The notes under the pieces are model-generated. The model saw nothing but the letters and a program-made list of their open reading frames with translations, did not search any database and was not told the DNA's origin. From Ruminococcus sp. UBA4240 (GTDB lineage Bacteria > Bacillota > Clostridia > Oscillospirales > Ruminococcaceae), in contig DGXE01000024.1 of the NCBI GenBank assembly GCA_002395525.1, forward strand, positions 18,692-82,691: 64,000 bases of DNA, written 5' to 3'. This document shows positions 2,653 through 56,938 of this stretch, in pieces. Every line of letters begins with the position of its first letter. Position 1 is the first letter of the stretch. Both the position numbers and the translations under genes were made by a program.

Positions 2653-2686
2653 CAGCTTCTCTGAGCCGTTTTGAAGAATGTGTAAT

Positions 2687-2727: not shown

Positions 2728-2754
2728 AGGTCACAGGTGTGACCTTTCCGTGCG

Positions 2755-4134
2755 GTGGTAAAAATGAGTGAACGAAAATACAATGTGAACATGACAGAGG
2801 GCAGAATACTCCCTGCCATGCTGTCCTTTGCCGTGCCTCTGATGTTCTCAAGCGTTTTGCAGCTGCTGTTCAATGCGGCTGATGTGGTGGTGGTGGGCCG
2901 CTTCTCCGGGGAGAATTCCCTTGCGGCGGTAGGCTCCACCGCCACCCTTATAAACCTGCTGACAAATCTGTTCTTAGGGCTTTCTGTGGGGGCAAACGTG
3001 ACAGTGGCACGCTTTCACGGTGCAAGGCTTGAAGCTGACCTGTCAAAGGCAGTCCACACCACTATGACCCTGAGTGTCATCAGCGGAGTGATAATGACCT
3101 TTGTGGGGTTTTTCGGGGCGCACTGGATGCTCTCCCTCATGCAGACCCCTCCCGAGGTCATCGACCTTGCCACGGATTACCTGCAGATATACTTTCTGGG
3201 CGTGACCGCAATGATGGTCTACAACTTCGGTGCTGCCATACTCCGTGCTGTGGGGGATACCAAAAGACCCCTGTACTACCTGCTGGTGTCCGGGGTGCTC
3301 AATGTCATACTCAATCTTGTATTTGTCATAGGCTTCAAAATGGATGTGTCCGGTGTCGCCCTTGCCACGGTAATGTCAGAGGTGCTTTCCGCAGTGCTGG
3401 TGGTAATGTGCCTCATGCGTGAGGGGGGCGGCATAAGGCTTGACCTGAAAAAGCTGGGGCTTGACAAGGCAAAGCTCATATCCATCATCAGCATAGGCCT
3501 GCCCGCCGGCTTCCAGGGGGTGCTGTTCTCCCTCTCCAATGTGGTGATACAGTCCTCTGTCAACGGCTTCGGCAACATCGTGGTGGCGGGGAACTCCGCC
3601 GCCCAGAATATAGAGGGCTTTGTCTACGTGGCAATGAACTCCTTCCATCAGGCAGCCATCAGCTTCACCGGTCAGAACTACGGCGCAGGCAGGTACGACC
3701 GCATCAGCAAGGTTGCAGGCTGTGCCCTTGGCTGTGTGACCGTAACGGGAGTGGTTCTGGGCTGGGGGGCATTCTTCCTGGCAACCCCCTTGCTGTCCAT
3801 ATATTCAAACAACCCGGACGTTATTGCGGCAGGTACCATACGCCTTTCGCTGGTATCCGCCACCTATGCCCTGTGCGGCTTTATGGATGTGCTGGTGGGA
3901 GTGCTGCGGGGTATAGGGCGCTCCATACTGCCCATGGCAATATCCCTGGTGTGCATATGCGGCTTCCGGCTTTTGTGGCTGGGAACGGTGTTCCAGCAGC
4001 CTGAGTTCCATGTGATAAGAATGGTGTATATGTCCTATCCCGTGTCCTGGATACTCGCCATAGCCGCAATGCTCATCTGCTATTTCATCGAGAAGAGAAA
4101 GCTTGACCGCATGGCTTTACAGGCAGAGGGCTGA
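2755..4134 (+). CDS. MATE family efflux transporter
   Basis: 459 aa, about 12 hydrophobic segments, MATE-like N-terminus (EGRILPAMLSFAVPLMFSSVLQLLFNAADVVVVGRF). The true start may be the ATG at 2764. Confidence 0.8.
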   Translation: MVKMSERKYNVNMTEGRILPAMLSFAVPLMFSSVLQLLFNAADVVVVGRFSGENSLAAVGSTATLINLLTNLFLGLSVGANVTVARFHGARLEADLSKAVHTTMTLSVISGVIMTFVGFFGAHWMLSLMQTPPEVIDLATDYLQIYFLGVTAMMVYNFGAAILRAVGDTKRPLYYLLVSGVLNVILNLVFVIGFKMDVSGVALATVMSEVLSAVLVVMCLMREGGGIRLDLKKLGLDKAKLISIISIGLPAGFQGVLFSLSNVVIQSSVNGFGNIVVAGNSAAQNIEGFVYVAMNSFHQAAISFTGQNYGAGRYDRISKVAGCALGCVTVTGVVLGWGAFFLATPLLSIYSNNPDVIAAGTIRLSLVSATYALCGFMDVLVGVLRGIGRSILPMAISLVCICGFRLLWLGTVFQQPEFHVIRMVYMSYPVSWILAIAAMLICYFIEKRKLDRMALQAEG

Positions 4135-4151
4135 ATAAGTGCATCGTGCAG

Positions 4152-4194
4152 AAGCTCCGGGAGTGCTTAAAAAGAGCGCTCCCGGAGCTTTTTG
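4152..4194 (+). terminator. rho-independent terminator
   Basis: AAGCTCCGGGAG ... CTCCCGGAGCTT stem followed by TTTT. Confidence 0.7.
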
Positions 4195-4376
4195 ACAGTG
4201 GTGCTGCATTGTCAGCCCGGAGACATACTCTGAGGATGAGGAAGCAACATGAGGAGCCCTACTGTCCATGTATGCTTTCACCAAAACAGATATGTGATTT
4301 TTGACATTTCTGACAGTTGTAATTTGCGCTTTAAAATGGTATATTTAACGTAACTACCTAAAAGGAGGACTAAACA

Positions 4377-6068
4377 ATGACCATGACCAAGAGAGCGTCA
4401 GCCCTCATAATATCCCTGCTCATGCTGCTGGGGATATGCGGGGCATTCCCCGCACGGGCTGCGGCGGCAGATGCTGCATCCATTAAATTCTCATACAGTG
4501 CGGTAACAGTGCCTGTGGGGAAGACCATTACCTTAAAGCCTGTCATAACAGGCCTGCGGGGTCCCCGCCTCAACTGGACCACCACCGACCGCTCCGTTGC
4601 CACAGTGACCGATTCCGGCAAGGTAAAGGGCATAAAGGAAGGCAAGACCACCATCAGTGCGAAGATAAGCAACACCGCCCTTTCCGCATATGTGACCGTG
4701 TATGTGGGCAAGAGGGTCAAGTCTGTCAAGGCTACCCCTGCCGAGATCACCCTTGAACCGGGTAAGACAAAGAAGCTGAAGGTCACTCTTTCCCCCTCAG
4801 ATGCGGCATACAAGGGTCTTATCTACACATCCTCGGATGAAAGCGTTGCAACCGTGAAGAAGGGCACTGTCACCGCTGTGAAGGCAGGCAGCGCTGTCAT
4901 CACCGTGACCGCTGCGGACGGCTCAAAGAAGGCGGCTCAGGTAAAGGTCACCGTAAAGGGCAGTTCCGCCGCTGCCTCAAAAACAGCCTCCACTCAGAAG
5001 ACCACCACAACAACCACCACAAAGAAGATCACCGCCACTGCTACCAACGGCTTTGACACAAAGCTTTCCGCCTTTGACCTTACAAAGAAGATGACCGTGG
5101 GCTGGAACCTGGGCAACGGCCTTGACTCCATCGGTGCATCGGAGACTGCTTGGGGCAACCCCGTCACCACAGAGGCCATGATAAAGGATGTCAAGGCTAT
5201 GGGCTTCAATTCCATACGCATCCCCGTCACCTACCACAAGCACGCCGACAGCAACGGCAACATCGACAGCAAGTGGCTTGACCGTGTGCAGGAGGTAGTT
5301 GACTACGCCTATAAGAACGGTATGTACGTAGTCCTTGACGACCACCACGACAACAGCTTCTACGACATAGGGGGCTGTGTAAAGAATGAGGCGACACTGA
5401 AAGCAAGCCGCAAGAAGATGCAGAACCTGTGGAAGCAGATAGCAAACCGTTTCAAGAGCTACGATCACAAGCTGCTGTTTGAAGTGATGAACGAACCCCG
5501 CACCGAAGGCTCCGCAAAGGAATGGTCAGGGGGCACCAAGGAAGAGCGTGACGTGCTTGCGGTGCTCACTCAGGACTGCGTAGATGCCATAAGGGCAACA
5601 GGGGGCAACAATGCATACCGCTTTGTGGTATGCCCCGCATATGCGGCTACCTCCAACACATCTATACTCAAGGGCACAAAGTTCCCCGATGATGACAGAG
5701 TTATAGTTGACATACACACCTATGCGCCCTACAACTTCGCCATGAACGGCAAGGGTCCCTCGACCTTCACTGACAGCGACAAGAGCGAGATCGACCGTTT
5801 CTACTCCACCATCAACGACATATTCATCTCCAAGGGACGGGCTGTAATAATCGGTGAGAACGGCGCTGTCAACAAGAACAACGAGGATGAGCGCTGCGCA
5901 TGGGCAGAGTACACCATCAAGGCCGCCAAGAAGTACGGCATACCCAACTTCATCTGGGACAACAACTCAAACGGCACAGGTGATGAGGCATTCGGCCTTT
6001 ACGACCGTGCAAACGGCAAATGGTACTGGGAAAAGCTTGCAAAGGCTTACACCTCTGCCGTAAAGTAG
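4377..6068 (+). CDS. secreted glycoside hydrolase family 5 (endoglucanase-like) with two N-terminal Big_2 Ig-like domains and a Thr-rich linker; no dockerin
   Basis: Signal peptide MTMTKRASALIISLLMLLGICGAFPARAAAA. Two units of about 80 aa fit the Big_2 pattern (VTVTDSGKVKGIKEGKTTISA / ATVKKGTVTAVKAGSAVITVTA). TTTTTTKK linker. GH5 hallmarks are GWNLGN, NSIRIPV, FEVMNEPR (acid/base Glu), HTYAPY and IIGENGA (nucleophile Glu). Confidence 0.85.
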   Translation: MTMTKRASALIISLLMLLGICGAFPARAAAADAASIKFSYSAVTVPVGKTITLKPVITGLRGPRLNWTTTDRSVATVTDSGKVKGIKEGKTTISAKISNTALSAYVTVYVGKRVKSVKATPAEITLEPGKTKKLKVTLSPSDAAYKGLIYTSSDESVATVKKGTVTAVKAGSAVITVTAADGSKKAAQVKVTVKGSSAAASKTASTQKTTTTTTTKKITATATNGFDTKLSAFDLTKKMTVGWNLGNGLDSIGASETAWGNPVTTEAMIKDVKAMGFNSIRIPVTYHKHADSNGNIDSKWLDRVQEVVDYAYKNGMYVVLDDHHDNSFYDIGGCVKNEATLKASRKKMQNLWKQIANRFKSYDHKLLFEVMNEPRTEGSAKEWSGGTKEERDVLAVLTQDCVDAIRATGGNNAYRFVVCPAYAATSNTSILKGTKFPDDDRVIVDIHTYAPYNFAMNGKGPSTFTDSDKSEIDRFYSTINDIFISKGRAVIIGENGAVNKNNEDERCAWAEYTIKAAKKYGIPNFIWDNNSNGTGDEAFGLYDRANGKWYWEKLAKAYTSAVK

Positions 6069-6083
6069 CTGAACATACAAACA

Positions 6084-6117
6084 AGCCCCCGGAAACTGCT
6101 CCGGGGGCTGATTTTTG
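6084..6117. terminator. bidirectional rho-independent terminator between convergent genes
   Basis: AGCCCCCGGA / TCCGGGGGCT stem, T-run on the plus strand (GATTTTTG) and T-rich sequence on the minus strand. It sits between the stops at 6068 (+) and 6123 (-). Confidence 0.7.
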
Positions 6118-6122
6118 CCAGC

Positions 6123-7301
6123 TTATGAATTCATCTTTGCCTTGTAGTCTTCCTTCAGCTTTGCAAGGCGCTTGGAATCCTCCGTGCGCTTTGCCCTTGC
6201 CTCCTCCTGTATCTTCTTTGTCTCCTCTATGCCGGATACGATGGTAGCCCATGTCTTTTCAAGGGTCTCCACCTGGATGGAGTTGCCGTTGGCGAGCCTT
6301 GTGGTGAGCTTGGTCTGTTCCACGGTGTTTGTGGCGTTCTTGAGCAGCAGCTCATTGGTCTTGTCATCAAGTGTCTTCATAGCCTCAGCCTGTATCCTCT
6401 GGCGCTTTAACATGACAGCCTGTGCAAGGGACTGCTTGAACACGGGCATGGTTATGATGAATGCGGAATTTATCTTGCGCATAAGATTTACGTTGGAGAA
6501 TTCCATGGATTTGAGCATGGGTACGGTCTGCATCGCCACATTCTCTGCGATCTTCAGATCCATTACACGCTGCTCCAGTATGGAGCGGGACTGTTCAAGA
6601 GCCTGCAGATCCATAGCGGCTGTGCCGGGATCCTCGCCTGCATCCACCTTTGCACGGTACTCCGCAATGTAGGTGTCAAGCTCGGTGCACGCCTGCTCCC
6701 CTGCCATGATGTAGCGCAGGAGCTGCTTGTAGTAGTCGATGTTGGCGTTGTACATGATCTCCAGCTTCTGGTTGGACTGGCCTATCTCGTTCTCGTACTT
6801 TTTCAGCTGGATGTATATCTTGTCCACATGGTCGCCCATGGTGTTGTACTTTGCAAGTATCTTGTCAAGGGACTTGCGTATGCTTGCAAGAAAGCCCCTC
6901 TTTTCCTCGGTGGAGAGCTCCTTTGCATCAAACTGAGCCATTATGGTGCCCAGCTCCTGCAGCAGCACGCTTGAATCGTCGATCTGTGTCATATCCATGG
7001 ATTTGAGCACCTGATCGGAGGCCTTGGATATCTCCTCTGCCACCTCGTTGCCGAAGGTAACGATGGTGTTGGGGTCGTTTACATTGATGGTGGAAACCAG
7101 CTTGTTCACCTCATCGGATGTGATAAGTTCGTTCTCCAGCTTCTGCTTCGTGGCAGTCATGGAGAAGGTGTTGGGGTCTCCTACATTGATGTTATAGGTC
7201 ATAGGTGCGGGGGCAGCTGCTGCCTGTACTTCAACAGGCTCTGCGGTGTTTGTCTCCTGCATTTGCTCTGCGGGTGTGAACTGAATGGGCATTGCTATCA
7301 T
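6123..7301 (-). CDS. telA: TelA-family toxic anion resistance protein
   Basis: 392 aa, largely helical or coiled. The segment KYNTMGDHVDKIYIQLKKYENEIGQSNQKLEIMYNANIDYYKQLLRYIMAGEQ matches the conserved TelA/KlaA core as I recall it (YI.AGE). It is paired with a YceG-like gene as in B. subtilis yceG-yceH. Confidence 0.7.
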   Translation of the reverse strand: MIAMPIQFTPAEQMQETNTAEPVEVQAAAAPAPMTYNINVGDPNTFSMTATKQKLENELITSDEVNKLVSTINVNDPNTIVTFGNEVAEEISKASDQVLKSMDMTQIDDSSVLLQELGTIMAQFDAKELSTEEKRGFLASIRKSLDKILAKYNTMGDHVDKIYIQLKKYENEIGQSNQKLEIMYNANIDYYKQLLRYIMAGEQACTELDTYIAEYRAKVDAGEDPGTAAMDLQALEQSRSILEQRVMDLKIAENVAMQTVPMLKSMEFSNVNLMRKINSAFIITMPVFKQSLAQAVMLKRQRIQAEAMKTLDDKTNELLLKNATNTVEQTKLTTRLANGNSIQVETLEKTWATIVSGIEETKKIQEEARAKRTEDSKRLAKLKEDYKAKMNS

Positions 7302-7321
7302 CCTTTCCTTTTTTCCGTTTT

Positions 7322-8890
7322 TCAGAATAGCTTCTTGAAGAGAAAGCTCTTTTTATGGGAGCGGGGTTTCGTGGGTATCTTCATTCTGGGTACGCTGCGT
7401 ATGGGTGCGCCGAACACAGGCTCCCCGATGGTGTGTGTCTCAAACGCCTTTTCGGAGATGTGCGTTTCAAGATCCCGGTAGCAGGTGGGGCAGAAGACCA
7501 GTATGTCAAAGCCCAGGTAGGACAGCATAAGGGTCTGTGTACACTGCAGCTTTGAGAATGGGTCCTCTATGGGGTCGGCGATGATGACCTTGGGTATTGT
7601 CTTGGTGAAGTCGTAGCTCTGCAGCAGCTGCAATATCTCACGGTTGAGGTTGAGGGCTACATACATGGTAAAGTCCACCAGCTCCTGTTCGCTGTCCATA
7701 AGGAGCATACCGTCATTTATCATGGCCTGCGCCTTTTCAAATATGAGCCTCTGCAAATGACCGGGGAGGAAGTTGTATCGGTTTAAGGGGGATCTCATCA
7801 GCTCGTCTATGAGCAGCTGCTTGCCCCTGTGGAAGCGGGCATATATCCTTGACTGGCTGATATACAGGTTTTTGAGGGATACCGCCTTTACCTGGAAATA
7901 GGTCTCCGGGGTCAGCATCCTCTTCACAAGCTCCCAGTAGGCCTTTATATCTCCCCCGGGGACACCCTCCACCTTGGCGAATATGACAGGCACCGTCACC
8001 ACGTCGTCCTTTACGGCAAAGCCCGTGCGGTACTTTGCCTCCTCGTCCCACAGCAGGTCTATCTCCTCGTAGGTGGTGGCAAGGACGGCGGCGTTCATGC
8101 GCTCGAACTGATTGGAGCGGAACATTGTGTCGCTGCCGGTGTACAGCATCTCATCAAGCTCTTTCTGGGCATTGTAGGCGATGGTGTTTATCTTCGCCTT
8201 GACGGGTGCCTTCGGGAAGGGCCTTACAGCAGCCGTCTTCCCCAGGCTCTCCTTCTGGAGCTTGTCGGAGAAGGGGCATTTCTCAAACATATCAAGGGCT
8301 GTGTCATCCGGGGATATACACAGCACGTCAAAGCCGCAGCGGGCAGCATAGCACAGAAAGAGGGTGTCCTCGCTGTTGGGTATGCCGTAGTACATGATGA
8401 GGGGTATCTTGTCGGTTATGGTGCCTACTGCTGCGGAGATGAAATTCATCCTCTCCACCAGGGACAGCCCCACATTCAGCTTGTCCGTGGGGACAGCCGT
8501 CAGCATTTCCCCAAGGGCAGTCTGGGCTATGAAGCGGCGCTCCTCATTGTCTATCTCGATGCGCCCGCACAGCCCGGATATAATGGCGGCATCTCCCTCC
8601 ACCCCGGAAAAGATGGGGTCAAGGTCGAACCTCCCGGGGACAGCTATGGGCAGGTCGATAAAGGCAAAGGGCTTCCCCGACTTGGTTATGTCGCTTTTGA
8701 GCTCATAGAGGAAATTGTCGTATCTGTCGGGATTCTCCAGTGTGCCTGTGAGCAGCAGGAAATATACGGGGATAAGCTCCCTTTTTGTGAAATGTCCGCC
8801 TCTGGCATAGAGCCTGACGGAATGCTCCTGGCAGATGTCCTGCCCGAGGTGCGTTATATCAGCATTTATCTGTTCAACTAAACGAGCCAT
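7322..8890 (-). CDS. YceG-like protein (partner of TelA)
   Basis: 522 aa, immediately upstream of and co-oriented with telA. Size and position match B. subtilis YceG. No catalytic motif was recognised by eye. Confidence 0.5.
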   Translation of the reverse strand: MARLVEQINADITHLGQDICQEHSVRLYARGGHFTKRELIPVYFLLLTGTLENPDRYDNFLYELKSDITKSGKPFAFIDLPIAVPGRFDLDPIFSGVEGDAAIISGLCGRIEIDNEERRFIAQTALGEMLTAVPTDKLNVGLSLVERMNFISAAVGTITDKIPLIMYYGIPNSEDTLFLCYAARCGFDVLCISPDDTALDMFEKCPFSDKLQKESLGKTAAVRPFPKAPVKAKINTIAYNAQKELDEMLYTGSDTMFRSNQFERMNAAVLATTYEEIDLLWDEEAKYRTGFAVKDDVVTVPVIFAKVEGVPGGDIKAYWELVKRMLTPETYFQVKAVSLKNLYISQSRIYARFHRGKQLLIDELMRSPLNRYNFLPGHLQRLIFEKAQAMINDGMLLMDSEQELVDFTMYVALNLNREILQLLQSYDFTKTIPKVIIADPIEDPFSKLQCTQTLMLSYLGFDILVFCPTCYRDLETHISEKAFETHTIGEPVFGAPIRSVPRMKIPTKPRSHKKSFLFKKLF

Positions 8891-9072: not shown

Positions 9073-9687
9073 TCAGCGCCTTTCGTGACCGGTCATTCCA
9101 TCAGTGACTTGTGCATTGTCATAACTTTCGGTCATTATAATATTGCAGCACCAATCCGGGATGTTTTCACATTTATCTGTACAGGTGCCGTTTTCAAATG
9201 CGGCAATAAACCTGAAAGACACCGTGTTATCATATATTTTTACATGATCGCACAATGGCAGGACATTTTTCAGATTTTCCAAAGACTGGATGTAACGATG
9301 TCGGATATCCTTTTCGTCTATCCCATGACCGCCCTTGGCTACTCTTTGACGTACTCTTTCTACCGCAAGATCAGCACTGGAAAGCCCTACATAGTACAAA
9401 TGGATCTCATATCCTGTTTCCTTAGCTTTATTAATGTTCCTGATGATACTTTTGCCGCAGAGAGTAGTTTCCTGATCAAAAGATATGCCTTGTGCCATAT
9501 AACTGTGTATAAGATTTATTGCTATCCTTCCGGATCTGATAACATCCGTGCTGTTCTTCCATGAGCCGAGAGTGCGGACGATCTCATCAAGATTTACCCG
9601 CGGTAAAGTGAGCATTTCCTTATAGGTCTGATAAAGTGTGGTTTTTCCCGCACCGTTCACACCTGCGAATATGATATACTTTTTCAT
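9073..9687 (-). CDS. zeta-toxin-like P-loop kinase (AAA/zeta toxin family)
   Basis: 204 aa. Walker A is at the N-terminus (IIFAGVNGAGKTT). Size and layout resemble the zeta/COG4185 family. The start overlaps the stop of the upstream 61-aa ORF (TGATG). Lies in the low-GC region. Confidence 0.6.
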   Translation of the reverse strand: MKKYIIFAGVNGAGKTTLYQTYKEMLTLPRVNLDEIVRTLGSWKNSTDVIRSGRIAINLIHSYMAQGISFDQETTLCGKSIIRNINKAKETGYEIHLYYVGLSSADLAVERVRQRVAKGGHGIDEKDIRHRYIQSLENLKNVLPLCDHVKIYDNTVSFRFIAAFENGTCTDKCENIPDWCCNIIMTESYDNAQVTDGMTGHERR

Positions 9688-9911: not shown

Positions 9912-10004
9912 TTATGTCAGCTTCTGATACATCTTCATAAGCTCCGCTACTATCTCGCTTTCGGTCATGTCGGGCTTGAAGCCGTATTGGCTGTTTATGC
10001 TCAT
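9912..10004 (-). CDS. 30-aa ORF translationally coupled to the S-subunit gene (MSINSQYGFKPDMTESEIVAELMKMYQKLT)
   Basis: The ATG overlaps the TGA of the specificity gene (ATGA). Found by manual translation because it is too short for the ORF track. It could be a gene remnant. Confidence 0.25.
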   Translation of the reverse strand: MSINSQYGFKPDMTESEIVAELMKMYQKLT

Positions 10005-11176
10005 TCACCCGCTACTTTTTTCATAGTCTCGATCACTTTATCTTTATATCTTACTACATCTGCAATAACAACCTTTTCCATAGCACGGATATATCGTTCC
10101 ATATAATCAAAATCAGGTGTTCCGTCTGATTTGATGGGAATAGTAATAAAACATTCTTTGATTCTGTCCCATGTCGCCTTCTTTTCATACGAAAAACGCT
10201 CTTTTGTTAATTTTTCAATACAACGTGCAAGATATAAAAGACTATGTTCAGTAACATCATCAAATGTAGGTTGTATAAGATAAGCATCCCATAAAACTGC
10301 GGTTGCTTGGGGTTGAACATATACTTTGCCCGTTGCAACTGCTCCGTTCTGAATAACATCTATACACATACTCTGAGTGTTCCAATCTTCTTTTCTACCA
10401 TAGAACATGATTCCATTATCGCCTAATTTTGCGTTTATCAGAGGAATACAAAACTCGTCTGTAGGTATTGAAGAAGTATCTTTTCGCTTATCAAAATCTG
10501 CTTTTTTACACTTTGCTTCTACTTTATCAAACAGTTCACTTATCAATATATCTGTAAACTCGACCTTTTCAGATAATACTTTCTTATCATCTTCGGTCAT
10601 TTCATAATCATTCAGACCTGTAGCCTGTAAATACGCATCCAACTCTGTGATACGGTCATGCTCCAACTCTGTGATACGGTCATGCTCCAACTCTGTGATG
10701 CGGTCACGCATATACTGCCAATCAATATCATCGACTGTGTATTCGTGGTCAGGATTAGGGTTTTCAATGACAGGAAGTTCGATTATAGTATTATTCACTC
10801 TTGGCACGAATTCTCTAACAAGATAACTCTGATAATACGCACTATGCTTATTCAATACGCTGATAAAAAATAATGCAAGAGTTTCATCAAAATTGACAAA
10901 TTTAGGAATAAGAGTCTTTGTGAACTGACCCGCATAAAAATCGTGAGTCATATAGTGAAATTTCATACTAATCATTCCAACAGCAAGACTATTACCTGTT
11001 ATCTTGTGGTCTTCATCTAAATATTCAACATATCCGAGAATTCCATTATTATTTTCTGTTCTTGTAAAATACGGATATTGAGCATCTTTGGAAAATGTAA
11101 AATTCTCCTTATCTAACTGAGGATTGTTAATTACATCGAACAAATCGCTTATGTAAAATGTTTTATTCATCAGCAC
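10001..11176 (-). CDS. HsdS-like DNA specificity subunit with two target-recognition domains (BcgI-B-like)
   Basis: 391 aa. The two-TRD architecture has a central helical spacer containing the DRITELEH x3 repeat. Overlaps the upstream methylase gene by 14 nt. Confidence 0.7.
   Translation of the reverse strand: MLMNKTFYISDLFDVINNPQLDKENFTFSKDAQYPYFTRTENNNGILGYVEYLDEDHKITGNSLAVGMISMKFHYMTHDFYAGQFTKTLIPKFVNFDETLALFFISVLNKHSAYYQSYLVREFVPRVNNTIIELPVIENPNPDHEYTVDDIDWQYMRDRITELEHDRITELEHDRITELDAYLQATGLNDYEMTEDDKKVLSEKVEFTDILISELFDKVEAKCKKADFDKRKDTSSIPTDEFCIPLINAKLGDNGIMFYGRKEDWNTQSMCIDVIQNGAVATGKVYVQPQATAVLWDAYLIQPTFDDVTEHSLLYLARCIEKLTKERFSYEKKATWDRIKECFITIPIKSDGTPDFDYMERYIRAMEKVVIADVVRYKDKVIETMKKVAGE
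10638..10709. repeat. 24-bp tandem repeat x3 inside the specificity gene
   Basis: TCCAACTCTGTGATACGGTCATGC occurs at 10638-10661 and 10662-10685 as perfect copies. The third copy at 10686-10709 has 2 mismatches. It encodes (H/R)DRITELE x3. Confidence 0.95.
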
Positions 11177-13181
11177 TCACCTGACCATTCAGAATAGCAG
11201 ACACTTTCCATGCCAGATAATCAGCAACGGTTTTCTTGAAATCCTCTTCAGTCGGTGTAGTATCAATCTTCTTATGCTGATTGAATGTCCAGTCATCACC
11301 ATTCAGAGTGATAGTGTCCTTGATAACCTTACCATTGGACTCAGTATAGTAATCCGTCTTCGGCTTCTTACCAAGGCAGATAGCAACTACTTCGTCATAA
11401 CGCTCTAATGCGTGGTCTGTATTACGCAGATTTACTTCCTGTGTGGACTTCTTACGATTCTGTCTTGAATACCCGTCTTCCGAGAAATCAATGAATGTTA
11501 CCACATCATCTTCTTCGTGTGGGCGGTTTACTTTAAACAGATATATGGCAGTCTGTACAGATGACTTACCGCTGAACAGATCAGCAGGCATACGTATACT
11601 TGCAAGCAGGGTGTTTCTTTTTAACAGTCTTTGTGAGTATACATCGCCCTGACCGCTGCCGGCATTTTCCTGTATCAGAACCGCACCATATCCTTTTTCC
11701 ATTCTTGATAATGCCTCATCAACGAAGATAAGACCTTTGCCCTGTGCTGAATAAGGCGGGTTCAAAAGGAATACATTTGCAGGAAATTCCTGCTTATCAA
11801 TCTCTTTATGAGAGTCACCACAGATAACCTGTGAAGAACCATCACCCATCAGTATCATATTAAGGACGGCAAGGATATAGATATTACCGAGGATCTCGAT
11901 GCCGAGAAGCTGCTTTGATTTAATATTATCAATCTTTTCAGCAAGAGCATCTTTATCCTTGATTTTCGACTTTGCATCGGCGATCATCAGATCCATACCT
12001 GATACAAGGAATCCTGATGAACCCATACAGGTATCCCATACGAATGAATCCATATCTGTTCTACAGATACGAGCCATCAGATTTGTGACGAAACGAGGAG
12101 TGAGGACTACATCATTAAGTCGGTCATTATCAATAGCTACCCAGTCGTTGAGGGAATTGAGTATCTTGCCTGTAAAGTCAAGATGAATATTGCTTTCAAG
12201 AAGCGGCAGTATCTCATTCTTAATCTGCTTATAAACAGATTTGATGATACTTTCGCCTTTGTTCGGTTTCCAAAGATTACGCTTATCAAAAACAGGTTTC
12301 AGATAATCTACAACCATTTTGATTTTATCATCGGAACATTTCTTTTTACGAAGAAATGATTTAGTACGAGCAATAATCTTTGTACCATCATTATCATCAG
12401 TATCATCATTACTGTCAAAATCATCAACTTCCAAAGGCTTAACGCCTTCAGTAGTAAGACCTGCCATGATAAGACCGCAGAAAAAATACAGTTTATCATT
12501 TGTGGAAAGCAGATTTTTAATTTCATTATCATCGTAGATACGCTGATGAATATCTTTTATGCTCTTTTCAAGAAGTTCCTCTTTGCTGCGCTTTAACTTT
12601 TCAAGTTCAGCATCCGTAAGATTAAGAGTATCGAGCATAGCGAAGAAATCATCAATATTCCTGTCTGCCATCATTACAAAATCGAAATCTTTGATTTCCT
12701 TCGGAATACCATTATTCTTCTGTGATACATAATAAGCCTTGATCTCGGGATCAGATATGATTCCATTTTCACCGACAGTTGTTCCGTTGATACCAACAAT
12801 AATGACTTCTTTATATGTACCTTCTGCAAGAATAGCATTGCCATAATGCAAAGCGCCATTGACTGCAAAATTTACAACGGCACTATATGGATTCTTGCCG
12901 CCTGATACAAGTTCAATGTCACCATTCTTTGTCAGTTTCTCCAGTTTTCCTTTAGAGCCTTTTGCTTCGGTCATAACAGGAATATCCCTGCGTGTTTTGT
13001 TCTGCAAAAGTATCTTTATATCGGGATAGTTGTTTCCACCATTTCCTGATTTTGAGTCAGCATTTTTAAGAGCATAGTCAATAGAACGATTGATGGATTC
13101 GGTCTTTCCGTAATGTCTGATTTTCAGGTTGTCAAGTTCTGCCTTGTAATATTCCTCAACTTTTTCTTCAACACTTGCCAT
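11163..13181 (-). CDS. fused PD-(D/E)xK nuclease-like domain plus gamma-class N6-adenine DNA methyltransferase (BcgI-A-like Type IIB RM subunit)
   Basis: 672 aa. Motif I is FVWDTCMGSSGFLV and motif IV is LLNPPYSAQG. The N-terminal 180 aa or so carry P53-D54...E72-A-K74 (YPDIKILL...VMTEAKG). No HsdR is present in the window. Confidence 0.6.
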   Translation of the reverse strand: MASVEEKVEEYYKAELDNLKIRHYGKTESINRSIDYALKNADSKSGNGGNNYPDIKILLQNKTRRDIPVMTEAKGSKGKLEKLTKNGDIELVSGGKNPYSAVVNFAVNGALHYGNAILAEGTYKEVIIVGINGTTVGENGIISDPEIKAYYVSQKNNGIPKEIKDFDFVMMADRNIDDFFAMLDTLNLTDAELEKLKRSKEELLEKSIKDIHQRIYDDNEIKNLLSTNDKLYFFCGLIMAGLTTEGVKPLEVDDFDSNDDTDDNDGTKIIARTKSFLRKKKCSDDKIKMVVDYLKPVFDKRNLWKPNKGESIIKSVYKQIKNEILPLLESNIHLDFTGKILNSLNDWVAIDNDRLNDVVLTPRFVTNLMARICRTDMDSFVWDTCMGSSGFLVSGMDLMIADAKSKIKDKDALAEKIDNIKSKQLLGIEILGNIYILAVLNMILMGDGSSQVICGDSHKEIDKQEFPANVFLLNPPYSAQGKGLIFVDEALSRMEKGYGAVLIQENAGSGQGDVYSQRLLKRNTLLASIRMPADLFSGKSSVQTAIYLFKVNRPHEEDDVVTFIDFSEDGYSRQNRKKSTQEVNLRNTDHALERYDEVVAICLGKKPKTDYYTESNGKVIKDTITLNGDDWTFNQHKKIDTTPTEEDFKKTVADYLAWKVSAILNGQVSADE

Positions 13182-29294: not shown

Positions 29295-29468
29295 TTAGAG
29301 GTTAGAGATTAGAGGTTAGAAAATAGAGAATGTAAAATAGATTTGTTTGCTCAATTCCTCTTTGCTTTTTGTTGCACATAGGCTTCGCTTTTGCGGATAG
29401 AGAGGCTATAAAGCTATATGTTCATCGTAAGCTCATCTTGCATCTTGCTTCTTGCATCTTGCTTCTAT
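29295..29468. repeat. intergenic element 1 bounded by inverted heptamer arrays
   Basis: The left array is TTAGAGG TTAGAGA TTAGAGG TTAGAAA ATAGAGA (29295-29329). The right array is CATCTTG CATCTTG CTTCTTG CATCTTG CTTCTAT (29434-29468). Confidence 0.85.
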
Positions 29469-33085: not shown

Positions 33086-33315
33086 CTGGAAGCAAGAAGT
33101 TAGAAGCAAGAGGCAAGATGAAGTAACGATGAACATATAGCTTTTTGCCTCTGTTACTGCAAAGTATTACTTTTTCGCAAAAAAAGGAAAGAGCCGGCAT
33201 CCCTGCCGGCTCATGACTTCTGATATCTGATTTCTAATGCGGCAGAGCAGAGGCAGAACACTCGCAATTCGTTGTCTGCTTATCTTGCCTCTTGCTTCTT
33301 GCCTCTTGCTTCTGC
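33086..33315. repeat. intergenic element 2 bounded by inverted heptamer arrays
   Basis: The left array is CTGGAAG CAAGAAG TTAGAAG CAAGAGG CAAGATG (33086-33120). The right array is TATCTTG CCTCTTG CTTCTTG CCTCTTG CTTCTGC (33281-33315). The core shares ACGATGAACATATAGCTTT with element 1, in inverted orientation. Confidence 0.85.
33176..33212 (-). terminator. rho-independent terminator downstream of the AIM24-like gene, located inside element 2
   Basis: GAGCCGGCA / TGCCGGCTC stem, followed on the minus strand by TTTCCTTTTTTTGC. Confidence 0.65.
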
Positions 33316-33318
33316 CAA

Positions 33319-34023
33319 TCAGTTGCTCTTGGGGAGATAGGGGATGATAGCGCCTGCAAGTGCGCTTGCGGGCATAGTCTGGAGCCAGATGCGCCCCGGG
33401 CCTGTAACACGGGTGTTGAAAAGGCCTTCGCCGCCCAGCAGAGCGTTGCCTACGCCGGCAACTGTCTCTATGTCAACAGAGCAGGTGGCATCCATTGCTG
33501 CAAGATAGCCTGTGTCTATGAGCATGGACTGACCGGGGGCAAGGTCGTAGTTGTATACGCCGCCGTTTATCTCAAGGAATACCATGCCGGTGCCGGTGAA
33601 CTTCTGCATGATGAAGCCTTCGCCGCCGAAGAAGCCTGCACCCACCTTCTTCTGGAAGAAAAGCTCCATGTTCACGCCCTGTGAGTTTGCAAGGTATGCC
33701 TGCTTCTGAGCTACGATGGAATTGCCGCCGTTTAGCTGTATGCACAGGATGTCACCGGGGAATGTGGATGCGAATGCTATCTCACCGGGGCCTCCCTGTG
33801 AGGTGTAGGTGTTCCTGAACATGGACTCGCCTGTCAGGGCAGATTTTGCCAGACCGCCCAGTGCGCCCAGCAGACCACCCTTGCCGCCGCCTGAGAGGCC
33901 TGTCTGCATCTGCATATTGGGGGTCATCCAGGACATGGCGCCTTTCTGGCACTCTATGCTCTCGCCTGCATCAAGCTTGCAAACCAGAGCGCAAAGGGGC
34001 TTGTTGATAACTTCGTATTGCAT
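33319..34023 (-). CDS. AIM24/TIGR00266 (DUF124) family protein
   Basis: 234 aa. MQYEVINKPLCALVCKLDAGESIECQKGAMSWM and Gly-rich beta repeats are typical of the family. Confidence 0.7.
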   Translation of the reverse strand: MQYEVINKPLCALVCKLDAGESIECQKGAMSWMTPNMQMQTGLSGGGKGGLLGALGGLAKSALTGESMFRNTYTSQGGPGEIAFASTFPGDILCIQLNGGNSIVAQKQAYLANSQGVNMELFFQKKVGAGFFGGEGFIMQKFTGTGMVFLEINGGVYNYDLAPGQSMLIDTGYLAAMDATCSVDIETVAGVGNALLGGEGLFNTRVTGPGRIWLQTMPASALAGAIIPYLPKSN

Positions 34024-34252
34024 GATTATTCCTCCGTTTCTGCGAATGTTTTCGCTGTATTGATATTATCATATTATGGCGCCGATGTCAATATTTTTTT
34101 GCACTTTTGTTATGAAAATGTTTTTTTGCCTGTTCCCGGGCACTATCTCCGGAAAAGCAAGGAATGTGGGGGCATTGTGCATAATGCAGTAAAATACATT
34201 CCGGAGGCTGTCATATTTTTCGTTGCAGTTCGGTTACAATTTGGTACAGGAC

Positions 34253-34281
34253 TTGAAATATTTGCAATTTGCGTTTATAAT
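34253..34281 (+). promoter_or_regulatory. sigma-A type promoter of the 34467-39555 operon
   Basis: TTGAAA (34253-34258), 17-nt spacer, TATAAT (34276-34281). This leaves a leader of about 180 nt. Confidence 0.55.
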
Positions 34282-34466
34282 AGATGTGTATATTCGGTAA
34301 GTGTCGGCTGATGTCGGCAAAGCACCGGCTTATGCCGGTACAGACTCCAAATCACTTTACAGTGAATGTCAATTTATTTTGACGTTCACCAGCAGACCTC
34401 ACAAGCGCACAGGCTTTCAGCCCGCCTCGGCGGCTGATATGCTCTGCGCCCCAAGGTGGTGTATAG

Positions 34467-35513
34467 ATGTTCAAAAAGAAAGAAAAGCTCCCTGTGACCG
34501 GGGCTAAGGCGGAAGACAAGGGAGCCGTTAAGGTAGGCTTAAAGCCTGCCCCCCTACAGCCCGGTGCGAAGGGCGCTGACAAGGCTCTCTCAGAGCAGGA
34601 GGGCAAAAAGAAAAGCAAGCCCCGGGAGAAATTCCGGGAAAAGCGAAGCGTGGCAGACCCCAACACACCCTTTGCAAGGGCGCTGCTCATACCCAGCATT
34701 TTAGGTGTCATCACCTTTTTTGTAGCACCCTTCCTCATAGTTATCTACTACTCCTTCCTTGACAACCCCATTGCCAAGGAATTCGTGGGATTTTCCAACT
34801 ACGGTGCGGTGCTCGGCAACAGCGCCTTCCAGACAGCCGCCAAGAATACCCTGATACTCTCTGCGGTTTCCGTGCCCGCTGCGGTGGTGTTCTCACTGCT
34901 GCTGGCTCTGCTTCTGGATGCGAAGATACCCATGAAGAGTATGTTCCGCACCTTCTTCCTGTCTCCCATGATGGTGCCTGTTGCCTCCATCGTGCTCATA
35001 TGGCAGGTAATATTCCACTACAACGGCTCCCTCAACTATATGCTGGCACAGCTCTTCGATTTGGCGCCCATTGACTGGATGAAGTCCGACAAGAGCCTTA
35101 TGGTGGTAAGTGTGCTGTTTCTGTGGAAAAACCTGGGGTACAACATGATACTGTTCATGACAGCCCTCTCAAACATCCCCAAGGATCTCATCGAAGTGGC
35201 AAGGCTGGAGGGCGCAGGGGGCATATGGGTGCTCACTCACCTGAAGCTCAGGTACATTTCCCCCACGGTGGTGTTTGTCACCATACTCTCTCTCATAAAC
35301 TCCTTCAAGCTGTTCAGAGAGGTGTATCTGCTGACGGGGGACTATCCCTATCAGAGCCTGTATCTGCTGCAGCACTTCATGAACAACACATTCCGTTCCC
35401 TTGACTATCAGAAGTTGTCCTCCGCCGCCCTTATCATGGCGCTGGTGATGATATTCATCATCGGACTGCTGGTGCTGACGGAGAACGTATTCGGGGAGGA
35501 TATTGAGGAATGA
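34467..35513 (+). CDS. carbohydrate-type ABC transporter permease (MalF/BPD_transp_1) with a Lys/Glu-rich N-terminal extension of about 75 aa
   Basis: 348 aa, 6 TM segments, EAA-loop region (EVARLEGAGGIWVLTHLKL). Confidence 0.8.
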   Translation: MFKKKEKLPVTGAKAEDKGAVKVGLKPAPLQPGAKGADKALSEQEGKKKSKPREKFREKRSVADPNTPFARALLIPSILGVITFFVAPFLIVIYYSFLDNPIAKEFVGFSNYGAVLGNSAFQTAAKNTLILSAVSVPAAVVFSLLLALLLDAKIPMKSMFRTFFLSPMMVPVASIVLIWQVIFHYNGSLNYMLAQLFDLAPIDWMKSDKSLMVVSVLFLWKNLGYNMILFMTALSNIPKDLIEVARLEGAGGIWVLTHLKLRYISPTVVFVTILSLINSFKLFREVYLLTGDYPYQSLYLLQHFMNNTFRSLDYQKLSSAALIMALVMIFIIGLLVLTENVFGEDIEE

Positions 35514-36421
35514 CAAAAAAGAAAAAGAAGCGTTTCTCCCTGTCAAAGACCTGGTCGAATATCCTGCTCGGCATAGTCACCGTGTTCACAGCCATATCAG
35601 CGGTGATATTCCTGCTCCCCACGGTGCTGACCATAACCAACTCATTCATGGCGCAGTCGGAGATAAACGCCAACTACGGCATGATCTTCAACACCGTCAC
35701 CGGGAACAAGACCTTCATAGCAGAGAAGGTAAACCTTAAATTCATCCCCGATATGGTGTCCTTCGGCCAGTACGGCACCTTCCTGCTGAAAAGCCCGGAC
35801 TACCTGCTGAAATTCTGGAATTCCGTCATCTACACCGTGCCCATCGTCATATTCCAGATACTTGTGGCACTGGGGGCATCCTATTCCTTTGCACGGCTCA
35901 CGGGAAAGATAAAGGAGATCATATTCTTCATCTACATCGTGGTAATGCTCATGCCCTACCAGGTAACGCTGGTGCCCAACTACCTTGTGGCTGACAAGCT
36001 GGGGATACTGGGCACACGCCTTTCCATCATACTGCCGGGCATATTCTCCCCCTTTGCGGTGTACCTGCTGACAAAGGCCATGAAGCGCATACCCAAAGCC
36101 TTTTCAGAGGCGGCTAAGCTGGACGGGGCAAGCGAATTCAGGATATTCACCGATATATATATGCCTATGGTAAGGGGCTCCATATTCTCGGTAATGATCC
36201 TCATCTTCATCGACTACTGGAACATGGTGGAGCAGCCCATGGTGCTGCTTTCCGACGAGGGGATGTACCCCCTGAGCGTATTCCTGTCAAAGATCAATTC
36301 CGGAGATACAGGCCTTGCCTTTGCGGCGGCGGTGGTGTACATGATACCCTCCATGCTGCTCTTCCTCTACGGGGAGGATGCCCTTGTGGAAGGCATCTCC
36401 GGCTCGGCAACGCTGAAATAG
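35510..36421 (+). CDS. carbohydrate-type ABC transporter permease (MalG-like)
   Basis: 303 aa, EAA loop EAAKLDGASEFRIFTDIYMP, ATGA overlap with the upstream permease gene. Confidence 0.8.
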   Translation: MTKKKKKRFSLSKTWSNILLGIVTVFTAISAVIFLLPTVLTITNSFMAQSEINANYGMIFNTVTGNKTFIAEKVNLKFIPDMVSFGQYGTFLLKSPDYLLKFWNSVIYTVPIVIFQILVALGASYSFARLTGKIKEIIFFIYIVVMLMPYQVTLVPNYLVADKLGILGTRLSIILPGIFSPFAVYLLTKAMKRIPKAFSEAAKLDGASEFRIFTDIYMPMVRGSIFSVMILIFIDYWNMVEQPMVLLSDEGMYPLSVFLSKINSGDTGLAFAAAVVYMIPSMLLFLYGEDALVEGISGSATLK

Positions 36422-38429: not shown

Positions 38430-38450
38430 TCTCTAACTTCTAACCTTTCT
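38430..38450. repeat. solo heptamer array
   Basis: TCTCTAA CTTCTAA CCTTTCT. This is the same heptamer family as elements 1-4 but on one side only. Confidence 0.5.
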
Positions 38451-39578: not shown

Positions 39579-39617
39579 AGCCATCTCATCCATATGGTGA
39601 GATGGCTTGATTTTTTG
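39579..39617 (+). terminator. rho-independent terminator
   Basis: AGCCATCTCA / TGAGATGGCT stem followed by TGATTTTTTG. Confidence 0.75.
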
Positions 39618-39820
39618 TGCGGTTTAAGATTGGTTTAAGGTTCGTGTGCTATTCTCATAGTCAAAGGGTGACCCCCCACCCTTTGATAGTGATATCATCT
39701 TTTTCCTTTTTTCCTTTTTTCCTTTTTCTCCCCCATGAAGCGGCCGGGCATCACAGGATGCTGCGGCTGCTTTATTTTTGCAGACTCAAGGCAGAAAGAG
39801 GAGAAAAAGTATGCTTGCAA

Positions 39821-40625
39821 TTGCGGAAATAAAGCAGGAAAGAGGTGGCAAACCAATATCAAATACCAGGTGTAGAGGCTTATTTTACCCAAAGCTATCA
39901 AAAACTGCCAATTTCACGGACGATAGAGAACATTACTCATTAAGCCCAAGGAAAATGGTGCGTATACAAGCCATTCATAGTGTTCCCGTGAAATTGGGGG
40001 CATTCGCGAAAACAAAGCAAGCAAAGAGGAAATAAAGCTATATCGAATGCATTTGCGGAAATAAAGCAAGCAAAGAGGAAGCAAAGCAATATCGAACGCC
40101 TTTGCGAAAATAAAACAGGAAAAGAGGGAGTAAAGCAACGTCGAATGCATTTGCGGAAATAAAGCAGGAAAGAGGTGGCAAACCAATATCAAATACCAAG
40201 TGTAGAAGTTTATTTTACCCAAAGCCATCAAAAACTGCCAATTTCACGGAGTAGGAGGATTATACTTGCCATAGACTAATAAGAAAATGGGGAGAAATTA
40301 AACAATCAATACTTCACCAGCAGTGAAATTGGGGGCATTCGCAAAAACAAAGCAAGCAAAGAGGTGGCAAATCAATATCAAATACCAGGTGTAGAAGTTT
40401 ATTTTACCCAAAGCCATCAAAAACTGCCAATTTCACGGACGATAGAGAACATTATTCTCATTAAGCCCAAGGAAATTGGTGCGTATATTCAAGCCATTCA
40501 TAATGTTCCCGTGAAATTGGGGGCATTCGCGGAAATAAAGCAAGCAAAGAGAAAACAAAGCTATATCGAATGCATTTGCGGAAATAAAGCAAGCAAAGAG
40601 GAAACAAAGCAATATCGAACGCCAT
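39821..40625. repeat. nested noncoding repeat array (100-bp unit A x3, 88-bp unit B x2, degenerate tandem units of about 49 bp, three conserved long-loop hairpins)
   Basis: Unit A lies at 39821-39920, 40151-40250 and (partial) 40361-40439. Unit B lies at 39921-40008 and 40440-40531. CCAATTTCACGG / CCGTGAAATTGG inverted pairs lie at 39908/39986, 40238/40323 and 40427/40509. Confidence 0.9.
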
Positions 40626-40662
40626 TGTAACCAAATATTGGCAAAAAAATGCCCGTAAACAC

Positions 40663-40691
40663 TTGAAATGCCCCTGCTTGTGTGCTATAAT
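40663..40691 (+). promoter_or_regulatory. sigma-A type promoter of the 40742 gene
   Basis: TTGAAA (40663-40668), 17-nt spacer, TATAAT (40686-40691). Confidence 0.6.
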
Positions 40692-40741
40692 CAAAATAAG
40701 GATGATACCACCTCGCAAAAAGGAAAAAGGAGTGATTTTGA

Positions 40742-49819: not shown

Positions 49820-49858
49820 CCCCCCTGACCGGATCTTCGGCAGGGGGGGTGTTGTATT
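49820..49858 (+). terminator. probable rho-independent terminator
   Basis: CCCCCCTG...CAGGGGGG stem followed by TGTTGTATT, which is a weak T tract. Confidence 0.5.
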
Positions 49859-50074
49859 AGAAGCAAGAAACAAGATGCAAGAAGCAAGATCATGTGATGA
49901 TGACCATGCGGCTTGCACCCTCTTTCCACACAAAAGCGCAGCGTTTAAGGGCAGCCATATGGTCATCGTCACATCATCGCAAAAGCAGCGCTTTTGCGAA
50001 ACACAGCAGAGGGCAGCAGCAAGCCATTCCCCGTCACTCTTTCTTGCCTCTTGCCTCTAACCTCTAACTTCTAT
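49857..50074. repeat. intergenic element 3 bounded by inverted heptamer arrays, with a highly structured core
   Basis: The left array is TTAGAAG CAAGAAA CAAGATG CAAGAAG CAAGATC (49857-49891). The right array is TTTCTTG CCTCTTG CCTCTAA CCTCTAA CTTCTAT (50040-50074). The core holds an imperfect stem of about 25 bp (49888-49912 / 49954-49978) and a perfect hairpin GCAAAAGC-AGC-GCTTTTGC (49979-49997). Confidence 0.85.
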
Positions 50075-50472
50075 CCGGGCAGACAACTCTTGTCCTCACA
50101 TTCCCTGCATTTTTCGATGTGGCGCTTGAGCTTGTTGAAGGATTCGGAGCTGATGTCGTGCTCCAGCTTGCAGGCATCCTCTGCGGCAAGGTCGCCGTCC
50201 ACGCCCAGGTTTTTCAGCCAGTCGGTCAGCACAACGTGCTTTTCGTATATGCTCTCTGCCACTATGCGCCCCGCCTGTGTAAGGGTGATGTAGCCGGAAT
50301 CGTCGATGTTGATGAAGCCGCCCTCCTTAAGCAGACCCACGGCACGGCTCACACTGGGCTTTGATACCTGCATCTCACGGGAAATGTCGATGGAGCGCAC
50401 TTCCCCGCTCCTGTTGTGTATGATAAGTATGCTTTCAAGGTAGTCCTCGCCGGATCTTCTCAGTTCGTGCAT
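50071..50472 (-). CDS. DtxR/MntR family metal-dependent transcriptional regulator
   Basis: 133 aa, GEDYLESILII...ISREMQVSKPSVSRAV (wHTH), a DtxR dimerisation region, and a Cys-rich tail CRECEDKSC. Confidence 0.8.
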   Translation of the reverse strand: MHELRRSGEDYLESILIIHNRSGEVRSIDISREMQVSKPSVSRAVGLLKEGGFINIDDSGYITLTQAGRIVAESIYEKHVVLTDWLKNLGVDGDLAAEDACKLEHDISSESFNKLKRHIEKCRECEDKSCLPG

Positions 50473-56663: not shown

Positions 56664-56938
56664 ATAGAGGTTAGAGGTCAGCGATTAGAGGTCAGAGGGC
56701 GTGACAAAGATTGGTTTGCCTTGGTTTCTCTTTGCTGCCCCTCCTGTGGAACCCGCAGAGTGGATGAGGGAGCCTGCTATAGCGGCTGCTTTTGCAGGGA
56801 AAGAGTACGATAAGTGAGCAAGTCATCGTCACAGTATAGCCCCTCTCCGCATAGATCCTTACCTAACAGTTGAGGAGGGCAAGATGTCTGTGAGTTGTCA
56901 GCTTATCTTGCTTCTTGCTTCTATTATCTTGCATCTAT
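56664..56938. repeat. intergenic element 4 bounded by inverted heptamer arrays
   Basis: The left array is ATAGAGG TTAGAGG TCAGCGA TTAGAGG TCAGAGG (56664-56698). The right array is TATCTTG CTTCTTG CTTCTAT TATCTTG CATCTAT (56904-56938). Confidence 0.85.

Follow-up and report, generated by a model that had tools for sequence, protein, structure and literature searches.

A 64,000-nucleotide stretch of the genome of Ruminococcus sp. UBA4240 (contig DGXE01000024.1; hereafter the window) carries four intergenic elements, E1 to E4, in each of which two short inverted arrays of heptanucleotide repeats enclose a non-coding core. These elements are a genuine dispersed family with related cores, and they belong to the stop-codon-anchored heptanucleotide repeats (the STRR/long simple-sequence repeat class), outside the G-quadruplex subclass. 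Related lineages show homologous blocks dispersed with the arrays, slippage of units, exchange of blocks, stacking of modules and replacement at fixed boundaries. The explanation we favor, to which we give about an even chance, is that of a species-specific, modular, non-coding repeat family that is reshuffled by slippage and ectopic recombination and forms hairpins at gene ends.

An earlier, sequence-only reading had proposed the four segments 29295-29468, 33086-33315, 49857-50074 and 56664-56938, and all four hold, both in the sequence and with Tandem Repeats Finder. The program placed period-7 arrays at 29295-29320, 29434-29466, 33089-33118, 33283-33313, 49859-49889, 50042-50073, 56665-56698 and 56906-56922. 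The period was 7 for all arms, and direct reading gave 5 units per arm. When the window was scanned for at least three tandem YWAGARG units, with at most one mismatch per unit, 6 arrays were found, compared to 0-1 per shuffle in 30 dinucleotide-preserving shuffles; the arrays are thus distinct from low-complexity AG-rich sequence, a check that the sequence-only reading had named. Each element has about five YWAGARG heptads on its left and their reverse complement on its right. Two unit types occur in the window, A (TTAGAGG-like) and B (CAAGA(A/G/T)G-like). E2 has B-type units on both arms, E3 has a B-type left arm and a mixed B'/A' right arm, and E1 and E4 have A-type on one arm and B-type on the other. 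The outermost unit of an arm is usually (A/T)TAGA(A/G)G.

The cores (105-205 bp, non-coding) had been described as diverged yet sharing blocks, and this was borne out. They align as mosaic copies with a mean column identity of 50%, and E1 is related to E2, E3 and E4 with z scores of 15.6, 5.9 and 4.9, respectively; the core of E3 in the window is also related to that of E2 in a sister lineage (z = 9.8). The block of E1 that had been matched to its reverse complement in E2 is a 19-mer, AAAGCTATATGTTCATCGT, common to both elements as an exact inverted match. It is a copy of a motif, M (GCYATATGKTCATCRT), whose reverse complement, (A/G)YGATGA(A/C)YAT(A/G)Y(A/G)GC, adjoins B-type arms. Searched against all fetched loci, motif M was confined to the window species, and in comparisons with more than 290 other loci the elements matched via their arrays only, none via the cores, indicating that the cores are species-specific. 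A metagenome scan for the junction between a B array and motif M (GCAAGATNANNTNANGATGANCAT) gave 40 matches, all by chance and with no arrays nearby. Rfam gave no match over the whole window, either at gathering thresholds or at E <= 1. The parts of the elements, in window coordinates, are as follows.

E1 left arm, 29295..29329: five A-type heptads, TTAGAGG TTAGAGA TTAGAGG TTAGAAA ATAGAGA, purine-rich on the plus strand.
E1 core, 29330..29433: a block, AGATTTGTTTGC..CTCTTTGC, in common with E4; a small CGC-TTTT-GCG hairpin; motif M at 29410-29428 (AAAGCTATATGTTCATCGT).
E1 right arm, 29434..29468: five B-type heptads, CATCTTG CATCTTG CTTCTTG CATCTTG CTTCTAT, of which CATCTTG and CTTCTTG are the reverse complements of CAAGATG and CAAGAAG.
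E2 left arm, 33086..33120: five B-type heptads.
E2 core, 33121..33282: motif M at 33126-33144, a hairpin and the intrinsic terminator of the AIM24 gene (33212-33191, minus strand).
E2 right arm, 33283..33315: five B-type heptads, beginning 4 nt past the AIM24 TGA stop (33319-33321, minus strand).
Solo array, 38430..38450: three pyrimidine units, TCTCTAA CTTCTAA CCTTTCT, directly upstream of the start of a MacB-like gene.
E3 left arm, 49857..49891: five B-type heptads.
E3 core, 49892..50039: an inverted pair of motif M copies (49887-49912 / 49952-49978) with a stem of about 25 bp, and a perfect hairpin at 49979-49997.
E3 right arm, 50040..50074: mixed B'/A' heptads, CTTGCCT CTTGCCT CTAACCT CTAACTT CTAT.
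E4 left arm, 56664..56698: five A-type heptads, beginning 4 nt past the DUF2461 TGA stop (56658-56660).
E4 core, 56699..56903: an E1-like block, AGATTGGTTTGC..CTCTTTGC, and an M-like sequence, GTCATCGTCAC, at about 56822-56841.
E4 right arm, 56904..56938: five B-type heptads, ending just ahead of the Shine-Dalgarno sequence of an OmpR-type response-regulator gene (ATG 56957).

The solo array at 38430-38450 had been noted as a one-sided array and is real, as is the placement of the AIM24-like gene's terminator within E2. The region is ordinary chromosome: it encodes ATP synthase and two-component systems and includes cdaA-cdaR and pyrG. A rumen scaffold in ENA (L002, L127) is 100% identical to the window, and the PyrG encoded here shares 81% identity with that of Ruminococcus flavefaciens. 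All four elements are strictly intergenic. E1 runs from the stop codon of the CdaR/YbbR gene to the start of an AsnC/Lrp gene, E2 from the AIM24 stop to the promoter of a DUF2229 gene, E4 from the DUF2461 stop to the Shine-Dalgarno sequence of the response-regulator gene, and E3 lies between convergent genes. The gene reading into the purine arm ends at -4, +3, -4 and +3 nt from the array in E1, E2, E3 and E4, respectively, and the purine arm comes before the pyrimidine arm in 4/4. The overlap of the right arrays of E1 and E3 with the stops of cdaR and the DtxR-like gene, proposed earlier, was confirmed: both TAG codons (29465-29467 and 50071-50073, minus strand) lie inside the terminal unit of the array (GGATAGAAG; CTTCTAT in E1). 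At the far side of E1 the left arm, which is the pyrimidine arm on the minus strand, ends 18 nt before the AsnC/Lrp start codon (29277; Pfam match). The promoter of the DUF2229 gene (TTGAAA-17-TGnTATAAT, 33071-33043, minus strand) is just outside the left arm of E2, and on the other flank of E3 a gene of 160 aa ends 106 nt from the array.

Placement rules were then drawn from about 300 loci of many phyla. The purine-rich arm came first in 25/27 inverted pairs, the two exceptions being without a clear purine bias (26:0 by composition class, and 9:0 for NNAGADG arrays). Of these 27 pairs, 21 lie between tandem genes, 6 between convergent genes and none between divergent ones. A stop codon fell within -5 to +6 nt of the array start for 32/77 arrays in the purine orientation vs. 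2/66 in the pyrimidine orientation, and solitary arrays were stop-anchored in 23/48 vs. 1/39 cases, respectively. The stop was often in register with the heptads, as in TGAGGCA AGAGGCA, and the commonest array length was 3-5 units. The orientation rule, with the purine arm on the sense strand and starting at the stop, is real. Among array pairs 0.6-5 kb apart both polarities were seen (9 vs. 14). Purine-to-pyrimidine pairs at this distance were considered as autonomous partners of the elements and rejected; they enclose ordinary genes (SecD, Tgt, ATP synthase, ABC transporters).

In a scan of one genome per species, three B-type units were found at no fewer than 119 loci, and the matches listed include Cyanobacteria, Bacteroidota, Chloroflexota, Acidobacteriota, Verrucomicrobiota, Clostridia and others. 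Arrays were recovered in Nostoc, Anabaena, Microcystis, Moorena and many other taxa, and both A and B types are present in IMG/VR contigs. A genome of uncultured Clostridia from rabbit gut (L099) combines heptads of both types, A and B, in a dense mosaic whose cores are quite unlike those of the window; within this intergenic mosaic (positions 1-8000) are direct A-50 nt-B modules and nested inverted pairs, and one of its other repeated blocks includes a -35-like TTGACA box (AAAACTTTTAGTTTCTTGACAAGA), as though the repeat were carrying a promoter. No period-7 arrays were found in about 77 kb from the nearest other species (loci of PyrG and CdaR homologues), which makes the distribution patchy. 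Very long heptamer arrays occur in some genomes and IMG/VR contigs (L124, L275, L197) and contrast with the arms of 3-5 units at gene ends: a Flavobacterium locus (L124, 2755-3473) holds a heptad tract of about 720 bp that shifts from CAAGARG-type to CACGAAT-type, and L275 has 33 pattern matches.

To describe variation between strains, we compared three lineages that are about 96% identical: W (the window), S (L001, L003, L129 and L130) and T (L309). Independent assemblies of these loci exist in ENA, NCBI and Logan data and contain lineage-specific variants. Over 39 kb, all indels of at least 14 bp between W and S fall in E1-E4 or in one unrelated 49-bp satellite. As the large indels cluster there and the alleles differ, E1-E4 are hot spots of structural change. 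At the E1 site, the W allele is [B]-core1-[A'], the S allele has an additional stop-proximal module, [C]-core'-[B]-core1-[A'], and the T allele is [C]-core'-[pyrimidine arm], where C is a third heptad type, TAGGnnn. At the E2 site, the right arm in S is two heptads (14 bp) shorter and a block of about 65 bp is swapped; the S copy of the motif matches E3 of the window (27 nt, 96%), and the window copy matches E1 (19/19). In T, the same site has another terminator and a C-type member of the family, with identical boundaries. E3 in S is without a 49-bp piece of the core (49929-49977) that includes one copy of motif M. In place of the whole of E4, S has a 77-bp array-free spacer, and a homology test of the 62-nt S spacer against E4 scored at the shuffle mean. 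The solo array is identical across lineages.

A 2-bp indel at the array edge of E3 (window 50071-50472 vs. L129 9245-9658) has a consequence for the adjacent gene. The DtxR-family repressor of S reads 5 codons into the array and is 137 aa long, compared to 133 aa in the window, the longer form ending in ...LPIEVRG* translated from heptads. Since the C-terminus differs via an indel at the array edge, repeat arrays can encode the tails of proteins and lead gene-end prediction astray.

Four kinds of change were thus seen: units slipped, blocks were exchanged among copies, modules were stacked or lost, and whole elements were replaced outright; no clean insertion or excision was seen. The comparison of filled and empty sites that the sequence-only reading had suggested did yield the polymorphism (E1-E4 all differ), but neither clean empty sites nor target-site duplications. 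Outgroup synteny via PyrG and CdaR homologues was tried as a route to ancestral empty sites and abandoned; gene order is not conserved, and ancestral states are for this reason not inferable. Beside the element-bearing region is a synteny breakpoint: upstream of AIM24 the T lineage (L309 1-2760 vs. window 34100-36000) has PAF-AH-like, LytTR and other genes and is without the ABC-transporter permeases.

The arms of E2 and E3 are complementary and pair, with fold z scores of -7.9 and -11.9 on the two strands of E2, and of -6.0 and -7.3 on those of E3; both elements, E2 over its whole length, are long imperfect palindromes. The stem and perfect hairpin described earlier in the core of E3 are also predicted by folding. 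The antisense strand of E2 folds better than its sense strand, and for E3 the DtxR sense strand is the better one. As there is no consistent sense-strand advantage, the symmetry of E2 and E3 is a property of the DNA. We rejected selection on sense-strand RNA via G-U bias, since E2 and E3 favor different strands, and translational coupling via arm pairing for E1 and E4, whose arms are unpaired. Array hairpins were likewise rejected as canonical intrinsic terminators, having no U-tract here or in other phyla; only the inner hairpin of E2 has the GC-rich stem and U-tract of such a terminator.

Which known class do these elements fall into? The closest match is with the repeats described by Rehm et al. 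2015 (PMC4692102), GGGAATC in Xanthomonas and GGGGA(C/T)T in Nostoc, which are intergenic, with 70-75 convergent pairs per Xanthomonas genome, typical arrays of 4-5 units and a modal array length of four units. Their G-rich strand coincides with the coding strand for arrays that overlap a stop or are no more than 50 bp from it, and with the non-coding strand for those up to 50 bp upstream of the next open reading frame (ORF) (PMC4692102). They are scarce between divergent ORFs, most are transcribed, close relatives vary extensively in their length and sequence, and no function was found; G-quadruplexes were proposed as the explanation (PMC4692102). The window elements share the period of 7, the intergenic location, the convergent pairs, the anchoring at stops and the variation in length and sequence between close relatives, and the rarity between divergent ORFs recurs in the loci of other genomes (0/27 pairs). 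However, their units (TTAGAGG, CAAGAAG, TAGGnnn) have no G-tracts, with at most GG and usually a single G, their host is a Gram-positive rumen member of the Oscillospiraceae, and their arms enclose cores of 105-205 bp that make up a homologous modular family with a conserved motif. As AG-rich units without G-tracts follow the same pattern, G-quadruplexes or i-motifs are not the shared cause.

Dispersed tandem heptamers that are enriched in certain lineages, with several heptamer types per genome, are also the hallmark of the STRR/long simple-sequence repeats, although these have been described as plain tandem arrays. Such STRR heptanucleotide repeats were reportedly first seen in cyanobacteria, by Mazel in 1990, and Elhai and colleagues are said to have found, in 2008, small mobile repeats nested in Nostoc heptamer arrays. 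We know of no description of composite heptamer elements with shared cores in Firmicutes; our literature search returned no account of such repeats in Firmicutes, nor of a modular array-plus-core family. Mrazek et al. 2007 reportedly presented heptamers as the most abundant long simple repeats and suggested polymerase slippage. The TAACTGA direct repeats of Beggiatoaceae, Cyanobacteria and Bacteroidetes (MacGregor 2015, PMC4679880) also consist of 2-6 heptamer units a few nucleotides from gene boundaries, with a patchy distribution across phyla and a mechanism that is not known, but they are mostly directly upstream of start codons, inverted pairs are almost absent and the heptamer is a different one.

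Repeats of the REP/BIME/REPIN type resemble E1-E4 in being extragenic, at gene 3' ends or between operon genes, in forming hairpins from inverted copies, in being mosaics of a few motif types and in being prone to recombination and variable between strains; they have mRNA-stabilizing or terminator-like roles of their own. Unlike the window arms, which are tandem heptads without a GTAG or CGTC head, REPs are single imperfect palindromes of 20-40 bp that have such a head and are linked to RAYT, and there is no RAYT in the window or homologous stretches. The class that the sequence-only reading did not recognize is that of the Rehm-type heptanucleotide repeats. With small mobile elements such as Correia, RUP and Nezha, which are MITEs (transposable elements of the miniature inverted-repeat kind), E1-E4 share small size, non-coding content, inverted ends, multiple intergenic copies and presence/absence polymorphism. 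They differ in lacking target-site duplications and near-identical copies, in having arms of different types in some cases and in stacking their modules in tandem; a parent insertion sequence was not found in the window or related loci. As terminal inverted repeats, only the arms of E2 and E3 are complementary; those of E1 and E4 are of different heptad types and unpaired, which refines the earlier description of the elements. Array units of 7 bp in inverted arrays are also unlike CRISPR or iteron repeats (direct repeats of 17-47 bp with unique spacers, or next to a rep gene), and neither the window nor the related loci have a cas or rep gene.

In the explanation we favor, a module would consist of about five purine-rich heptads followed by a core, and one or more modules would be closed by an inverted pyrimidine-rich array, the resulting palindrome-like unit filling the spacer from a stop codon to the expression signals of the next gene. 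The family would be the equivalent, in a Gram-positive host and with AG-rich units, of the repeats anchored at stop codons in Xanthomonas and Nostoc. Its upkeep and reshuffling would depend on slipped-strand mispairing and on RecA-type ectopic recombination or gene conversion, with the 35-bp arrays serving as portable homology and no dedicated transposase being required. When transcribed, arms like those of E2 and E3 would pair into long hairpins in 3'-untranslated or intercistronic regions, which may act, like REP/BIME, on the stability of mRNA 3' ends or on read-through.

Several points weigh against this explanation. E1 and E4 have unpaired arms and fold no better than shuffles (z = +1.5 and -1.3), so that hairpin formation is not universal, and the inverted pairs are not canonical terminators, since those checked have no U-tract after them. 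Three haplotypes provide neither a recombination intermediate nor the direction of change. Slippage and recombination do not account for why the period is 7 nt, why arms have about 5 units, why the purine arm comes first or why the array starts exactly at the stop codon; indeed, neither this explanation nor any of its rivals accounts for period, arm length, polarity and stop anchoring all together. Finally, the negative result for an enzyme spans the window and related loci, and a trans-acting enzyme may lie elsewhere in the genome.

Were E1-E4 MITEs, the 35-bp heptad arrays would be terminal inverted repeats with reiterated binding sites for a transposase whose gene lies elsewhere in the genome. 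Such elements would be expected to have a non-coding core (105-205 bp here) between inverted arrays and to occur in multiple intergenic copies, and the presence or absence of E4 between lineages, the module gained by E1 and the patchy taxonomy, with about 77 kb from the nearest other species array-free, would fit as well. We nevertheless consider this unlikely. The flanks of E1-E4, read directly, have no direct repeat in common, and there is no target-site duplication in any of the four copies. The cores are about 50% identical and mosaic, the arms of E1 and E4 are of different heptad types, the 'empty' E4 site of S holds 62 unrelated nucleotides instead of a clean excision site, and solo arrays follow the same gene-end rules. 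No transposase, integrase, reverse transcriptase or RAYT gene was found in the 64-kb window or related loci, and no array pair 0.6-5 kb apart encloses a transposase, in any locus. The comparison to transposon ends or iterons made in the sequence-only reading is at most partly supported, on the same evidence. Alternatively, the heptads could be functional cis-elements, i.e. reiterated 7-nt sites at gene ends to which a host protein (e.g. a HutP/TRAP-like oligomer, S1, Csp, Rho or an RNase) would bind, in RNA or DNA, to control termination, the coupling of translation or the decay of mRNA, with the cores being incidental. HutP recognizes UAG at a 7-nt spacing, which would be in keeping with this idea, and so would be an arm length held to about 5 units here, with 3-5 commonest elsewhere and a mode of 4 in PMC4692102, the strict orientation and position relative to stops and downstream starts, and the conservation of heptads, but not cores, between two Clostridia species. 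We think it quite unlikely all the same: close relatives are array-free, S does without E4, and no gene for a candidate protein is linked to the elements. Moreover, genomes use many unrelated heptamers under the same placement rules, which disfavors a single sequence-specific factor.

The elements might also be the scars of a directional, templated process that adds or spreads repeats and is coupled to repair or transcription. Examples would be 3'-end addition at breaks, as in head-to-head telomere fusions, or expansion driven by R-loops, in which purine-rich RNA:DNA hybrids would expand from where ribosomes leave the mRNA. The purine-to-pyrimidine polarity across phyla (25/27; 26:0 by composition class), the start of arrays at the stop codon, with the stop often in heptad register, and the position of the new S module on the stop-codon side of E1 are all compatible with such a process, but its enzyme or template is neither known nor found, and cores are copied along with the arrays; as an account of E1-E4 we hold it to be very improbable. 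The wider proposal, that arrays across phyla are written by a conserved directional process anchored where translation ends and growing outward from the palindrome center, and hence do not stem from G-quadruplex biology, a transposase or selection of binding sites, is in our estimation decidedly unlikely; transcription- or R-loop-coupled expansion and repair-coupled templated addition of repeats may be candidates for it. If it were true, this G-tract-free family would be a natural test case, with accretion of modules on the stop side in three haplotypes and stops in register. As for chance low-complexity AG/CT-rich sequence or an assembly artifact, nothing beyond the purine richness of the arrays speaks for it, and the shuffles (0-1 arrays vs. 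6 observed) together with the independent assembly of the same loci (ENA, NCBI and Logan) refute it, leaving it a negligible probability.

The window contains other repeats. Upstream of a gene for a 659-aa protein without a Pfam match, about 1.1 kb of non-coding DNA (39600-40740) is made of 49-bp tandem units (GCATTTGCGGAAATAAAGCAAGCAAAGAGGAAG...; 49 = 7x7) and dispersed repeats of 105 and 142 nt; copy number varies between lineages (indels of 49, 44 and 20 bp), and there is no Rfam match. Within it, at 39700-39727, is a perfect (TTTTTCCT)x3.5 octamer tract that is 8 bp shorter in the sister lineage. The Type I restriction-modification genes hsdS and hsdM (10001-13181, minus strand), which adjoin a Zeta-toxin-like gene (9073-9687), include at the center of hsdS (10638-10706) 2.9 copies of a 24-bp tandem repeat encoding DRITELEH DRITELEH DRITEL. 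In HsdS, such repeats determine how long the spacer in the recognition site is, and they can be variable. Lastly, a 390-bp tandem duplication (x1.9, 92% identity) spans 62920-63673 in an ORF (62832-63704) with weak DUF4367-like matches.

Bacterial tandem heptanucleotide repeats have, to our knowledge, been recognized since 1990; in many genomes no other long simple repeats are as over-represented, and we know of no established origin or function. The one in-depth study of their placement that we know of invoked G-quadruplexes. E1-E4 obey the same grammar as the repeats of PMC4692102 without their G-tracts, in a Gram-positive gut anaerobe, which suggests, instead of G-quadruplexes, a link with the direction in which genes are expressed or with some directional process acting on DNA. 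They also illustrate that arrays can organize into stackable [array+core] modules that are the main structural polymorphism between strains of one species, with a bearing on strain typing, on the annotation of gene ends in metagenome-assembled genomes and on intergenic evolution. Their main value is as a G-tract-free, strain-variable example that narrows the explanations for bacterial heptanucleotide repeats.

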